A DNA stretch of 64,000 nt from positions 96,670 through 160,669 of the forward strand of contig JAQUPL010000002.1 in the NCBI GenBank assembly GCA_028716565.1. The letters are read 5' to 3'. Made by a program: the position numbers and the translations under genes. The notes under the pieces were generated by a model, which was given only the letters and a program-made list of their open reading frames with translations, was not told where the DNA came from and did no database searches. Position 1 is the stretch's first letter. Each line of letters opens with the position of its first letter. Shown in pieces: positions 48,635 through 53,113 of the stretch. The DNA is from Candidatus Omnitrophota bacterium. Its GTDB lineage: Bacteria > Omnitrophota > Gorgyraeia > Pluralincolimonadales > Pluralincolimonadaceae.

Positions 48635-49177
48635 ATGAAAGAAGAGATAATATTCGCGGGTTTCGGCGGGCAGGGGATAATGGTGATGGGCAAGGTCCTG
48701 GCCTGGGCTGCGATGCGCGAAGGATTAAAGGTGACGTGGATGCCTTCTTACGGCGCCGAGGTTCGCGGCGGCACGGCGCATTCGATGGTCGTGATATCGG
48801 ACGAGATGGTCCCTTCGCCGGTCGTGACGAACCCGACGGCGTGCGTCGTGATGAACAGGCCGTCGATGGACAGATACGAGGATTCTCTCACGAAATCAGG
48901 CACTTTAATAGTCAATTCCACGCTGATTGACAGGCAGGCAGCGAGGAAAGATATATACGTCCTGGAGGTACCCGTAACCAAGCTGGCCAAGGAGCTGGGC
49001 AATACGCGCTGCGCGAACATGATAGCGCTAGGCGCGCTGAACGCTAAATTGAAGATAGTATCGATGAGGGCATTGGTCGACGCTTTAAAGGAAGTGATCC
49101 CTCCGGATAAGCACGGCCTTATTCCGATAAATGAAGAAGCGCTGAAGGAAGGCGCTAAACTGGTCTCAAGGCAATAG
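48635..49177 (+). CDS. 2-oxoacid:ferredoxin oxidoreductase gamma subunit
   Basis: IIFAGFGGQGIMVMGKVLA is the gamma-subunit signature. Confidence 0.8.
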   Translation: MKEEIIFAGFGGQGIMVMGKVLAWAAMREGLKVTWMPSYGAEVRGGTAHSMVVISDEMVPSPVVTNPTACVVMNRPSMDRYEDSLTKSGTLIVNSTLIDRQAARKDIYVLEVPVTKLAKELGNTRCANMIALGALNAKLKIVSMRALVDALKEVIPPDKHGLIPINEEALKEGAKLVSRQ

Positions 49178-51250
49178 ATGGTAAAGGTAAGGTTCGCCCC
49201 GTCTCCGACGGGTTTTCTCCACATAGGAAGCGCGCGGACCGCGCTCTTCAACTGGCTCTTTGCCAGGCACATGAAAGGCACTTTTGTCTTCAGGGTGGAG
49301 GACACCGACAGGGAGCGCTCGAAAGACGAATTCCTTCAGGAAATAATATCTTCGCTCGAATGGATGGGGATGAATTGGGACGAGGGGCCGTTTTACCAGA
49401 CGAAACGGCTCGATGTCTACCGCGAATACGCCAAAAGGCTGCTTAAAGAAGGAAAGGCGTATGAGGCGGAAGGGACGCTTGGCGGCGAGAAAGCGGTGAT
49501 CCTTACCATGCCAAAAGTGACGATGACGATGGATGACATCGTCCACGGCCCGGTCTCCTTCGATATGAACCTGCAGAAAGACCTCGTACTCATGAAGTCG
49601 GACGGATTTCCCGCCTATAATTTCGCGTGCGTCATCGACGATCATGACATGAAGATCACCCATGTGATACGCGGCGACGACCATATATCGAATACGCCGA
49701 AACAGCTGGCGGCCTACCAGGCTCTCGGTATCGAGCCGCCGAAATTCGCGCATATACCCCTTATACTGGGGACGGACCGTTCGCGGATGTCAAAACGCCA
49801 CGGCGCGACTTCTATCTCGGAATACAAAGAGATGGGTTTCCTTCCCGACGCCCTCGTCAATTACATCTCCCTTTTAGGCTGGGCGCCGACAGGCGACCGC
49901 GAGGTGATGCCGATCGACGAGATAATAAAGGAATTTTCCCTCGAGAGGGTCGGGAAGACCGGCGCCGTATTCGATATAGACAAACTGATCTGGATGAACG
50001 GCGAATATATCAGGGCAAAAAAGACGGAGGACCTGGTCCCATTCGTCGCGCCGAGGCTTAGAGAGAAAGGCGTAATAGGAGACGACTACGATAAGGTGCG
50101 GCTCAAGGAGGCGGTGGAGCTTTTTCATCCCCGCGCGAAGACGATCGCCGAACTAGCCGATTCGACCGCTCCGTTTTTCACAGACGACGTGGTTTACGAC
50201 GAAACCGCGGTCGCTTCTGTACTCGCCAAGGAAGGGGTAAAGGCAAAACTGGAGGCTGTTATCGCGAAATTCGGGCCGCTCAAGGCGTTCGATCCGCAGG
50301 CGCTCGAGGCCTGCGTCAGGGACCTTGCCTCGGAGTCGGGCGTTAAGGCGGCGGATCTCATACATCCGGTCCGCGTAGCCGTCACTGGCCGGAAGGTTGG
50401 CGCGAGCCTCTTCGAGACCCTTTCCCTTATCGGAAAAGAAAAGACGTTGGCGCGCCTTAAAGCGGGCCTCGCGAAGGCCTTATCGGTCGTGATGGCGGCC
50501 GGGCTTTTGATGACATGCCGGGATCTGCGGGCGGAGAAGATATACTACAAAGACGGAACTAAGGTCACGGAACAGGTGATCGGCCGTGATAAGAGATCGG
50601 TCTGGATCAAAGACCCCTCGGGGAATATCGCCGTAAACCCGGATCGCATACAAAAGATCCTGAATGATGACGGGTCGGTCTCCAAGTATGATTACGGGAC
50701 GATACTGAGGACGATAGAAGAGAAAGTGAGGGCCGGAAATTACAATGAGGCCGCGGACTTATGCGACCTTTTAGTGCAATCGTTCCCGAAGAGCAACGAG
50801 GTCCATTACCTTCGGGCGGTGCTTAACCAGAAGGCCGGAAGATTTTCCAAGACCGCAGAAGATTACAAATTCATAATCGACAGCAAGTATAGCGACGCCA
50901 AGGTCTTTAACAACCTCGGCGCGATATACGCCGCGGATAAAGACAACCGCAGCGCGATGGAGATGTTCAAGAAAGCCGCGGAGATGAACGGCGATATGCC
51001 AGAAGTCCATTATAACCTCGCCTTCCTGTTCCTGCAGGAGAAGGACTACGATAAAGCGATAGATGAATACAATAAAGTGATAGCCAAGGAGCCCGATAAC
51101 ACCACGGCCTTGTATAATCTCGGCGTAGCCTGCGCGTTTAAGGGGGATTTTGCCGGGGCGAGGGAGCGGTTCGAAAAAGTCATCGCGATAGACAAAGGCG
51201 ACGAAAGCGCGACGAAAGCGCTTAAGGCGCTTTTGAGAAAAAATAAGTAG
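49178..51250 (+). CDS. gltX: glutamate--tRNA ligase with in-frame C-terminal hydrophobic segment plus TPR-repeat extension
   Basis: Class I HIGH (PSPTGFLHIG) and KMSKS-like (RMSKRHG) motifs in the first ~440 aa. The frame then continues through ALSVVMAAGLLMTC into about 240 aa of TPR-like repeats with no intervening stop. Confidence 0.8.
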   Translation: MVKVRFAPSPTGFLHIGSARTALFNWLFARHMKGTFVFRVEDTDRERSKDEFLQEIISSLEWMGMNWDEGPFYQTKRLDVYREYAKRLLKEGKAYEAEGTLGGEKAVILTMPKVTMTMDDIVHGPVSFDMNLQKDLVLMKSDGFPAYNFACVIDDHDMKITHVIRGDDHISNTPKQLAAYQALGIEPPKFAHIPLILGTDRSRMSKRHGATSISEYKEMGFLPDALVNYISLLGWAPTGDREVMPIDEIIKEFSLERVGKTGAVFDIDKLIWMNGEYIRAKKTEDLVPFVAPRLREKGVIGDDYDKVRLKEAVELFHPRAKTIAELADSTAPFFTDDVVYDETAVASVLAKEGVKAKLEAVIAKFGPLKAFDPQALEACVRDLASESGVKAADLIHPVRVAVTGRKVGASLFETLSLIGKEKTLARLKAGLAKALSVVMAAGLLMTCRDLRAEKIYYKDGTKVTEQVIGRDKRSVWIKDPSGNIAVNPDRIQKILNDDGSVSKYDYGTILRTIEEKVRAGNYNEAADLCDLLVQSFPKSNEVHYLRAVLNQKAGRFSKTAEDYKFIIDSKYSDAKVFNNLGAIYAADKDNRSAMEMFKKAAEMNGDMPEVHYNLAFLFLQEKDYDKAIDEYNKVIAKEPDNTTALYNLGVACAFKGDFAGARERFEKVIAIDKGDESATKALKALLRKNK

Positions 51251-51285
51251 TTTGATATTTCTCAGAGATGTGATAAAATTATAGT

Positions 51286-52497
51286 ATGAAAAGAGTTATG
51301 CGATATAATAGGTCCGGGATAAGGGCGTTTACCCTAGTCGAGATATTGATCGCGCTCGCGGTAGTAGGGGTCCTTTTTGGCCTTATATTCGCCTTCTACA
51401 GGTCCGCCATAGACAGGTCCAAGTATGTTGGGGCCGTCGCCACGGTAGATTCTATCAGTAAGGCCGAAGAGATAAGCCAGATGAATACCGGCGAGTATGT
51501 GGCTGCCGCCGACACGCAAGAGGTAAACGAAAAACTCGGGCTGGATATAGAATCGAAAGAATATAATTTTAAGGTTATCGGGGTAACGAACGATAATTTC
51601 ATCGTCCTGGCGGAAAAGATACTAGATGATATCAATAGCGGAGACCTTTCTTCGGATCAGGCCGTAATAGCCAGGGATAAAACCGGGCCGATCCCTCCGG
51701 AATCGGTCGATACCCAAGGAGATGAAACCTCTCCCGGAGAAAATAGTCCCCCCGGCGGTGATTCTCCCGGCGGCGGTAGTCCGGGCGGCGGGGCTCCTTC
51801 GGGCGAAAGCAGCCCGGTTAGCACCCCGGGCGGGGGCGGAAGCCCTACCGGCGGCGGGATCCGGACGATAAGGCCGCGCCAAAGCACCCTCAGCGCCGAC
51901 ATATTAAATTTACTGGACGGCACTATCTCAGGACAGTGGGCGCTCGACCTTATCGCTAACAATAGCATAAAAGTAGTCTATGTCGACATTAATGATTACG
52001 GCCTTTCGGGCGCTTTGGCTTTTTGGGGAGGCACAAGAGATGGTTATATAGTCGTCGACAGGCATAACGTATTCGTAACAGGCAACACGATATTCGTAAA
52101 CGAGAACCTTCCCGCGCTTGGGTATCCCGATACCGCCATAGCTTCCATAATCACGCATGAAGCTACTCATGCCGATTACGATTATCATCCCCAGGCATGG
52201 ATAGACGCGACTAAACTCGCGCATCCGGAATTGACGGATAGCGACATCCATATAACCAAGTATCCGGGAGATTCCATAGACCAGGAATACCAGGCTTTTA
52301 ATAACGCCACGACCACCTGGAGGGAAATAAGGGGAGCCGATAGAAATACCGAAATGGATGATTGGATCACGCTCCAGGATACGCCTCCTCCGCCTATAGA
52401 TATAGGGCCGGAAGCGGCCATGAAAGCTGAGATCAGGACCAGGTATCCGACCAATCCGCCGATACCGATAGGATCGGGCGGGTTGCCGGAATATTGA
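51286..52497 (+). CDS. prepilin-type (type IV pilin-like) protein with G/S/P-rich linker and C-terminal metzincin-like zinc-metallopeptidase motif
   Basis: Class III signal IRA|FTLVEILIALAVVGVL. A low-complexity segment TSPGENSPPGGDSPGGGSPGGGAPSGESSPVSTPGGGGSPTGG. HEATHADYDYH has the HExxHxxGxxH spacing with Gly replaced by Tyr. Confidence 0.6.
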   Translation: MKRVMRYNRSGIRAFTLVEILIALAVVGVLFGLIFAFYRSAIDRSKYVGAVATVDSISKAEEISQMNTGEYVAAADTQEVNEKLGLDIESKEYNFKVIGVTNDNFIVLAEKILDDINSGDLSSDQAVIARDKTGPIPPESVDTQGDETSPGENSPPGGDSPGGGSPGGGAPSGESSPVSTPGGGGSPTGGGIRTIRPRQSTLSADILNLLDGTISGQWALDLIANNSIKVVYVDINDYGLSGALAFWGGTRDGYIVVDRHNVFVTGNTIFVNENLPALGYPDTAIASIITHEATHADYDYHPQAWIDATKLAHPELTDSDIHITKYPGDSIDQEYQAFNNATTTWREIRGADRNTEMDDWITLQDTPPPPIDIGPEAAMKAEIRTRYPTNPPIPIGSGGLPEY

Positions 52498-52516
52498 TAT
52501 TATCGGAGCAGACCAT

Positions 52517-53113
52517 ATGAAAAAATCGGCAGTAACGGTTTTTATTTTATTATTAGGAGCGGCCTATATGGTTACTTGTAGCGGTTGTTCCGGAGCGGGC
52601 AAATATAAAAAATATTCCAGCACAGACCCGGAGCTTAATTTAACGATGTACTATATCCCGGGTTGGGAGTTCAGCGAAACGCGCGGCGCCCATAACAGCT
52701 ATGTTGATGTCTATTTTGGCGAACCGTGGGACAAGGTAAGGGCAAAGACGCGCAGGGCATCCATCGAAGTCGTCTCTTTCCAGGTGCCGAAGACCGGGAC
52801 GCCGGATATCTCGGCCCTTGCCGAGGGGATTGCCGCCGGTAAATTAAGATTGAATGACGGTAAATTGCTCGGAAAGGCGAAGATAAAACTTCCGGCGGGA
52901 GAGGCGATGGACCTTTCTTTTTCCTTTAAGGCCCCGGACAGGCTCTATAACACAAGCTCTAAACTGTTGACTGTAAAAGAAAGGGTCGTGATCTTAAAGA
53001 ACGGCGACAGCCTTTATACCGTCAAATACCAGAACAGGGAAGAGGCTTTTGACAAATATAGCAAAGATTTCAACAATATAGTAAGGTCGATAAGGTTTAA
53101 AGTGAAAAGGTAA
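52517..53113 (+). CDS. hypothetical lipoprotein
   Basis: Lipoprotein signal LLLGAAYMVTCSGC. No family recognised. Confidence 0.4.
   Translation: MKKSAVTVFILLLGAAYMVTCSGCSGAGKYKKYSSTDPELNLTMYYIPGWEFSETRGAHNSYVDVYFGEPWDKVRAKTRRASIEVVSFQVPKTGTPDISALAEGIAAGKLRLNDGKLLGKAKIKLPAGEAMDLSFSFKAPDRLYNTSSKLLTVKERVVILKNGDSLYTVKYQNREEAFDKYSKDFNNIVRSIRFKVKR

Follow-up and report, generated by a model that had tools for sequence, protein, structure and literature searches.

Membrane-anchored aminoacyl-tRNA synthetases (aaRSs) that carry a CAAD domain were reportedly described from cyanobacteria by Olmedo-Verd et al. in 2011. These class I enzymes, which include the glutamyl-tRNA synthetase (GluRS) of five species, bear a CURT1-like two-helix membrane domain and are active when bound to the thylakoid membrane (Santamaria-Gomez et al. 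2016, PMC4893482), so a membrane-bound GluRS is feasible. GluRS-CAAD is thought to stem from a fusion of gltX with the neighboring curt1, and the authors of that study saw no membrane-anchored aaRSs outside the cyanobacteria (PMC4893482). Here we analyze a 64,000-nucleotide stretch of DNA from a Candidatus Omnitrophota bacterium (assembly GCA_028716565.1, contig JAQUPL010000002.1, positions 96,670 to 160,669 of the forward strand; hereafter the window), in which a complete gltX continues in frame, through a hydrophobic linker, into the gene of a tetratricopeptide repeat (TPR) protein. Our literature searches returned no described GluRS-TPR fusion.

The GluRS-TPR fusion is an analogue of the CAAD-aaRS family and not a member of it, and that family is its closest precedent. 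In both cases an essential GluRS is fused to the product of a membrane-active neighbor gene within a restricted clade. The CAAD form occurs without a paralogue, and relatives of our organism have gltX and the TPR gene adjacent yet separate, as relatives of the GluRS-CAAD cyanobacteria have gltX next to curt1. The added parts themselves differ. CAAD, a domain of the CURT1 type, consists of two transmembrane helices and a coiled coil and brings no exported domain, whereas the fusion in Omnitrophota has one signal-derived segment, a predicted membrane location and a 238-aa domain that is periplasmic in relatives. Pfam profile searches gave no CAAD match on the fused protein or its linker, and no other family on the linker.

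Three further kinds of system share parts of this architecture. The Bradyrhizobium japonicum fbcH open reading frame (ORF), as Thony-Meyer et al. are said to have shown around 1989-1991, gives rise to both cytochrome b and cytochrome c1, which are cut apart at an internal signal peptide. There, as predicted here, one bacterial gene encodes two proteins, an internal signal exports the C-terminal part, and signal peptidase separates the two. For the mechanism predicted here, two proteins cut by signal peptidase from the product of one ORF, fbcH is the nearest precedent. In fbcH, however, both partners belong to one complex and the upstream one is integral to the membrane, whereas ours is a soluble, unrelated and essential cytoplasmic enzyme. 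PknB-type Ser/Thr kinases with PASTA domains are bitopic (N-in/C-out), joining a cytoplasmic enzyme to extracytoplasmic repeats through one transmembrane segment, and the fused GluRS has the same predicted topology and a similar distance of the hydrophobic segment from the N-terminus. In contrast to the kinases, in which the transmembrane segment has ~20 residues and no signal-peptidase site and the domains are coupled, the fused GluRS has a 14-residue segment, a conserved Ala-x-Ala-like site and halves of unrelated ancestral roles. Lastly, an aaRS body is fused to an extra module in GlnRS-YqeY (NF011291) and in the membrane-embedded mycobacterial LysX, a fusion of MprF and LysRS. The added module of these proteins uses or assists aminoacyl-tRNA chemistry, whereas no functional link between GluRS and the TPR part is apparent here.

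The fused gene and its conservation

The fused gene (49178..51250, + strand) opens with ATG and runs through 690 codons with zero in-frame stops, just as the first-pass annotation of this DNA had read it: a GluRS continuing without a stop into TPR repeats (Table 1). The GluRS half scores 491.1 bits against the TIGR00464 (gltX_bact) profile, for which the cut-off is 289.95, and the alignment reaches profile position 465 of 470 at residue 429. It also matches the Pfam families tRNA-synt_1c (PF00749) and Anticodon_2 (PF19269; 114.5 bits, with its end at residue 431). The domains are complete, and homology to separate GluRS proteins reaches its limit at residue 434-435 (nt 50477-50482), slightly before the boundary first placed near residue 440 (nt ~50488). 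Separate GluRS orthologues, which are 433-436 aa long, have their C-terminus at this same position. The class I motifs appear as HIGS at residues 14-17 (HIGH) and as RMSKR at about residues 203-207 (KMSKS-like), and they are intact in 26/26 full-length fused sequences. Purifying selection on this half, with a ratio of nonsynonymous to synonymous divergence (omega) of 0.05-0.13, argues that it is a functional GluRS. NCBI annotates the fused proteins as plain 'glutamate--tRNA ligase'.

What had been described as a TPR domain of about 240 aa does contain TPR repeats, but the AlphaFold2 model divides it into a beta domain of about 45 aa and a TPR portion of about 185 aa. The beta domain has five or six strands and matched no Pfam family; its first residues, EKIYYKDG, are the mature N-terminus of the exported protein in separate orthologues. 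The TPR portion is predicted to form 11 helices at residues 506-688, or about 5.5 TPRs, with a predicted local distance difference test score (pLDDT) of 94.8. It matches the TPR_1 (64 bits), TPR_2 (64 bits) and TPR_19 (65 bits) profiles above their cut-offs over a Pfam span of ~517-686. Foldseek searches with this part returned generic TPR structures only (CTPR, OGT and MamA, E 1e-10 to 1e-8), and sequence and fold searches of the PDB with the mature TPR part likewise gave generic TPR matches and no specific function. For the full protein, the pLDDT of 89.6 stands against a predicted template modeling score (pTM) of 0.60, which indicates that the model contains no confident docking of the TPR part on GluRS.

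Table 1. Features of the fused gene and its downstream neighbors, in window positions
Feature	Position	Strand	Description or basis
GluRS module, residues 1-435	49178..50482	+	catalytic domain and anticodon-binding domain, complete
Last GluRS helix, GKEKTLARLKAGLAK	50432..50476	+	supplies the basic flank (net +4) before the h-region; holds the non-conserved in-frame TTG 50447
Hydrophobic h-region ALSVVMAAGLLMTC, residues 434-447	50477..50518	+	homologous to the signal-peptide core of separate TPR orthologues
Fusion scar	50480..50485	+	stop, spacer, ATG and first 4-5 signal-peptide codons missing relative to L089, L003 and L001
c-region RDLRA, residues 448-452	50519..50533	+	predicted signal-peptidase-I site Ala452/Glu453 (nt 50533/50534)
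Small beta domain, residues 453-495	50534..50662	+	AlphaFold2 strands, pLDDT>90
TPR solenoid, residues 506-690, and stop codon	50693..51250	+	Pfam TPR, AlphaFold2
Promoter-like site TTGATA-16-TAAAAT with TG, ahead of the pilin-like gene	51252..51279	+	consensus scan
Two partner genes of the ancestral TPR module	51286..53113	+	403-aa pseudopilin-like HExxH protein and 198-aa signal/lipoprotein-like protein
Junction-spanning tryptic peptide of the fused protein			ALSVVMAAGLLMTCR

The open frame could in principle be an artefact of a metagenome-assembled genome (MAG), as the first-pass annotation had allowed, with an indel or a collapsed region at 50440-50500 merging what in reality are two genes. 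Two observations speak for this: a stop and a spacer occupy precisely this position in the nearest relatives with separate genes, and the initial homology search gave stand-alone TPR proteins only. That search, made with a 276-aa query of the junction and the TPR part, found about 33 orthologues in Candidatus Omnitrophota, all of them stand-alone proteins of 229-276 aa in which an N-terminal signal peptide (MK/R, a hydrophobic run and small-x-Ala) is followed directly by EKIYYKDG. The hint of a one-off artefact was overturned by a search with the full-length protein, which identified seven clusters at 90% identity (P0054-P0060; 689-690 aa, 79-96% identical) and a further, partial one. Expanding the clusters yielded about 26 distinct full-length fused sequences from NCBI MAGs and from ENA, JGI and Logan assemblies, all with the same junction geometry and an open frame, far more than chance would give. 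They come from different projects, assemblers and samples and diverge by up to 21% in protein sequence. The DNA of fused loci is identical between different samples in L085 and L086 and again in L087 and L088.

We compared five DNA lineages (the window, L085, L004, L005 and L087) for the codons at the junction and for synonymous divergence (dS) and omega. Among the nearer fused lineages dS is 0.13-0.8; it exceeds 1 to L087 and reaches 1.1-1.7. Over these distances omega stays at 0.05-0.13 in GluRS, 0.06-0.27 in the beta domain and 0.11-0.19 in the TPR portion, and by these ratios both halves are under purifying selection. Codon-level substitutions over the junction are typical of translated sequence. 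Because about 26 divergent and independent sequences share one junction, and because selection acts on both halves, we exclude assembly or sequencing error, an explanation that we regard as exceedingly improbable. We are virtually certain that the GluRS-TPR gene fusion is real and conserved, and at the level of the gene this bears out the genuine aaRS-TPR fusion that had been offered as the other reading.

An exact look-up of the 690-aa protein of the window gave no match, and close variants of it exist (P0054 and P0174). Scanning metagenome contigs with the junction peptide returned distant separate genes only and no new fused loci, and the best 150 matches of a search among 50%-identity representatives held no other GluRS+TPR architecture. 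The negatives from the representative search and from the junction+TPR query are weak, since both missed or hid the known fused clade. The word-indexed search with the 276-aa query missed 96%-identical fused proteins that the full-length query found, and in the 50%-identity library the fused clade is hidden under an unfused representative.

Two public entries for the TPR protein have wrongly called starts. In P0001 (245 aa, on a 2129-bp contig) the call begins 64 bp from the contig end, at the Met immediately preceding the Cys (MSQRGLRAEK...), and the entry probably represents a piece of a fused gene. P0003 (L089 1948-2667) is called from a TTG within the signal peptide, and the proper ATG-MKR start lies upstream.

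Origin of the junction and its signal-peptide remnant

The fused gene belongs to a syntenic order of DXS, ferredoxin, the alpha, beta and gamma subunits of a 2-oxoacid:ferredoxin oxidoreductase (OFOR), gltX, the TPR gene, a pilin-like gene, a ~200-aa gene and a PMT-type glycosyltransferase. L003 has this same gene order with a separate GluRS of 435 aa and a separate TPR protein of 260 aa. In the closest separate-gene lineages (L089, L003 and L001/L002), gltX stops at residue 435/436, a spacer of 56-75 bp with a promoter-like TTGACA-N17-TATACT follows, and the TPR gene then begins with its ATG and a signal peptide of 22-26 residues. In the more distant loci L006-L012, the two genes share nucleotides at the gltX stop and the TPR start (CC-ATGA-AA in 7/7), so gltX and the exported envelope gene appear to have been translationally coupled long before the fusion. 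The first-pass annotation had looked to orthologues with a stop after the GluRS domain and a separate TPR gene as evidence against a fusion. Such genes do occur in L003, L089 and L001, but they do not refute the fusion, because all nearer relatives share it.

No fused locus retains the stop, the spacer, the ATG or the first 4-5 codons of the signal peptide, and the distance between fixed anchors is 93 nt less than in L089. These elements, among them the promoter-like site in the spacer, were removed together by an in-frame deletion of about 90 bp. What is left of the signal peptide, 17 residues of its h- and c-regions, is joined directly to the last residue of the complete GluRS. The loss of a stop codon had been suggested at this position, correctly as to the origin of the gene but incompletely, since comparison with the DNA of sister lineages shows that the deletion also took the spacer, the start codon and the signal-peptide n-region. 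The fusion has a single origin and has lasted long enough for synonymous sites to saturate.

In a neighbor-joining tree of GluRS, all fused sequences and the unfused P0062 and P0063 form one clade with 85% bootstrap support; the core fused set has 98.5% and the group of P0060, P0062 and P0063 has 100%. At the loci of the two unfused members (L090 for P0062, 2650-2700, and L084 for P0063, 4300-4330), the PMT gene comes immediately after a complete GluRS, and gltX abuts or overlaps it. Because GluRS runs straight into PMT, we conclude that this sub-lineage later deleted the TPR, pilin-like and 198-aa genes (~2.7 kb). The secondary deletion begins exactly at the natural GluRS end, and the new C-termini differ, reading ...LAKAL before the stop in L084 and ...LAKAIIHRKAEQSDG before the stop in L090. 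A single fusion and, after it, a single secondary loss make up the simplest history. Together these compact genomes preserve a stepwise record that leads from an ATGA overlap or short spacer to fusion and then to secondary deletion.

The residual signal peptide provides the linker of the fused protein, whose h-region is its sole hydrophobic stretch and consists of 14 uncharged residues. The junction, ALSVVMAAGLLMTCRDLRA followed by EKIYYKDG, matches the h- and c-regions of the stand-alone orthologues' signal peptides residue for residue, and on the strength of this alignment we identify the hydrophobic segment as a signal-peptide remnant. Its hydropathy and run length (KD15 1.6-2.7, run of 14) match those of the signal peptides of separate orthologues (KD15 1.9-3.1, runs of 8-16). 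The upstream flank has a net charge of +4 in 13/13 junction variants and the downstream flank has +1 to +3. Position -1 is Ala in all 13/13 variants and position -3 is L, A or S; over all orthologues, the Ala before the Glu453 position is nearly invariant. AlphaFold2 models a single continuous helix at 420-445, running from the last GluRS helix into the h-region, and the c-region is the only segment with pLDDT<50.

Substitutions in the linker follow a restricted pattern. Nine representative fused sequences record at least 29 amino-acid state changes at 14 positions, none of which leads to D, E, K, R, N, Q or H, and one of which leads to Pro. For random nonsynonymous single-base changes in the linker codons, the expected share of such residues or a stop is ~29% (binomial p = 6e-4). 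By this measure, the linker is kept by selection as a signal-like, membrane-active element.

The segment had originally been likened to a transmembrane or lipoprotein-signal segment. Its alignment with the orthologues makes it signal-peptide derived, and the signal-peptidase-I type fits better than a lipobox. Its composition is that of a signal-peptidase-I signal, with an h-region within 7-15 residues, small residues at -1/-3 and a charged n-region that comes from the GluRS tail. Its location is not that of an ordinary signal peptide, as it lies at residues ~426-452 of the 690-aa ORF. Because it is not N-terminal and no internal start is conserved, we read it as an internal signal or signal-anchor-like element. 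Processing as a lipoprotein by signal peptidase II was considered and rejected: against the lipobox pattern [LVI][ASTVI][GAS]-Cys, the window sequence L-M-T-C has Thr at -1, the lipobox Cys is not invariant among fused sequences (Tyr in P0057, Ser in P0061/P0195), and in more distant orthologues the residue before the Cys is D, E, S or Q.

Proposed export of the TPR part and competing explanations

We propose that the TPR part is made within the 690-aa chain. The emerging hydrophobic segment would insert into the inner membrane N-in/C-out, with the Lys/Arg-rich last GluRS helix serving as its n-region, and the beta+TPR part would be translocated by Sec. Signal peptidase I would probably cut after Ala452, since the ancestral signal, which was cleavable, had an h-region just as short, and since the site ending in Ala is conserved. 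The products of such a cut would be the mature periplasmic protein of the ancestor and an active GluRS held at the membrane by its hydrophobic C-terminal tail. Whether an exported TPR domain has the fused chain as its functional source we consider an even call. The full series of steps, including cleavage, we rate somewhat lower, and we advance only tentatively the outcome that one ORF gives two proteins in two compartments, a periplasmic beta+TPR protein and a GluRS anchored by its tail in the inner membrane.

Several points weigh against this proposal. Export, localization and processing of the fused chain are steps that reach beyond the gene structure from which we deduce them. A run of 14 residues with KD19 1.5-2.4 is typical of cleavable N-terminal signal peptides, and when it is placed 430 residues into a folded protein it is marginal for internal recognition that depends on the signal recognition particle. 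The conservation of Ala452 could arise partly from constraints other than cleavage. The remaining points concern translation from within gltX: about half of the window genes have no Shine-Dalgarno (SD) motif, which leaves room for initiation at shifting or non-canonical codons, although this is not supported, and four of the five DNA lineages carry an ATG, GTG or TTG at codon 424/425 or 438/439.

These last points belong to a nested-gene explanation, according to which a TPR pre-protein is made from an in-frame internal start in the 3' end of gltX and exported normally, while the 690-aa product is a by-product or serves as the GluRS. The in-frame candidates in the window are TTG 50447, GTG 50489 and ATG 50492. 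Translation from TTG 50447 would begin with a signal peptide of textbook form, M-ARLKAGLAKALSVVMAAGLLMTCRDLRA directly before EK, and many genes of this genome have no SD motif and have A-rich leaders like the GGAAAAGAAAAGACG found upstream of 50447. Additionally, a nested gene would explain the selection on the h-region and on the Ala at -1 equally well. The start positions, however, are not conserved. At codon 424 (TTG 50447), L005 shares the TTG of the window, L085 (96% identical) and L004 have the synonymous CTG, and L087 has ATA; at codon 425, only L005 (GTG) and L087 (ATG) offer a start. For codon 439 (ATG 50492), three lineages were scored as ATG, L005 as TTG and L004 as GCC, and the codons at positions 50489/50492 were scored as GCC/CTG in L004 and TTG/CTG in L005. 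L004 counts as a lineage without a canonical start upstream of the Cys, its sole in-frame ATG/GTG/TTG standing two residues before that Cys, too late for a signal peptide. Across the five lineages, then, no internal start codon is conserved.

The GTG/ATG pair at 50489/50492, which the first-pass annotation had singled out as a possible nested start, does exist, but its codons are not conserved, and a start there would leave an h-region of 8 residues, too short for a signal peptide, and no charged n-region. An SD-like motif is absent before every internal candidate, in a window where only about half of the genes have one. A consensus scan found no promoter-like site in the gltX 3' end, dS is not reduced in the gltX tail relative to the rest of the gene, and the promoter-like site that the TPR gene once had of its own is deleted. 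Because there is no conserved start, SD motif, promoter-like site or drop in dS, internal initiation is unsupported, and we judge a nested gene possible but unlikely.

Other features of the junction were examined and set aside. A terminator-like hairpin at 50483-50502 (+ strand; TCGGTCGTGATGGCGGCCGG then GCTTTTGATG) is attributed to chance, with 17 such sites against 9.9 +/- 3.2 expected and a weak T-run. A frameshifted stop, the +1-frame TGA at 50490-50492 that overlaps ATG 50492, would with a 1-nt indel mimic an ATGA-type junction; it was rejected because all lineages keep the frame without a TGA.

Another possibility is that the fused protein stays in the cytoplasm as a two-domain enzyme of 78 kDa, soluble or membrane-peripheral, in which the TPR part is an interaction module of GluRS or a decaying passenger. 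aaRSs often carry appended domains, as in GlnRS-YqeY and in the eukaryotic aaRSs with GST-like or WHEP domains, and the h-region is short for a transmembrane helix. The hydrophobicity and the small-x-Ala site of the linker are nevertheless under selection, though a soluble linker needs neither, and an exposed 14-residue hydrophobic helix would be unfavorable in the cytoplasm. Docking between TPR and GluRS is not confident in the AlphaFold2 model (pTM 0.60), and the ancestral partners of the TPR protein are envelope proteins, whose genes still come next in order. Decay is contradicted by the omega of 0.11-0.19 that the TPR part retains after dS>1. The sub-lineage that lost the TPR part also lost both partner genes, not TPR alone. 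Weighing these observations, we find a purely cytoplasmic enzyme quite improbable.

We continue to favor export of the TPR part from the fused chain. If true, this would be the first membrane-tethered aaRS outside the cyanobacteria and a rare bacterial polyprotein, processed by signal peptidase, that combines an essential translation enzyme with an unrelated envelope protein. It would also be a natural experiment on the distance of a Sec signal from the N-terminus, here behind a folded enzyme of 435 residues, and would test whether an essential aaRS tolerates or gains from membrane tethering outside cyanobacteria.

Genes around the fusion

The fused gene lies within a very tightly packed operon, since the gltX ATG abuts the TAG stop of the oxidoreductase gamma subunit with zero spacer (TAGATG, window 49175-49180) and the genes for the alpha and beta subunits overlap by 4 bp. 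Over the whole window (1-64000), nearly all of the gene-like, long, non-nested ORFs are on the + strand. Downstream, the order of TPR, pilin-like and 198-aa genes, which ancestrally make up a three-gene envelope module, is kept in Omnitrophota loci with or without gltX upstream (L013-L020, L091-L093). Because the TPR module is conserved even where gltX is not adjacent, the fusion joins functionally unrelated neighbors. This is a caution for annotation and for 'Rosetta stone' inference, as the fused genes are neighbors and not functional partners.

The promoter-like site ahead of the pilin-like gene, TTGATA-N16-T(G)nTAAAAT, is kept in 7/7 fused and unfused loci (the window, L085, L004, L005, L087, L003 and L089). 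Given this retention, the TPR gene alone was deprived of its own promoter by the fusion. About 7 nt separate the end of the -10 element from the pilin-like gene's ATG, and the arrangement suggests a leaderless or near-leaderless transcript.

The gene for the 403-aa protein (51286-52497, + strand) always follows the TPR gene. The protein has a prepilin-type methylation motif, a GspG-like N-terminus and a Gly/Ser/Pro-rich linker, and its C-terminal domain matched no Pfam family. The HExxH motif of this domain (ITHEATHADYDYH) is conserved in 14/14 Omnitrophota orthologues. The sequence of the 403-aa protein suggests a pseudopilin-tethered putative metalloprotease.

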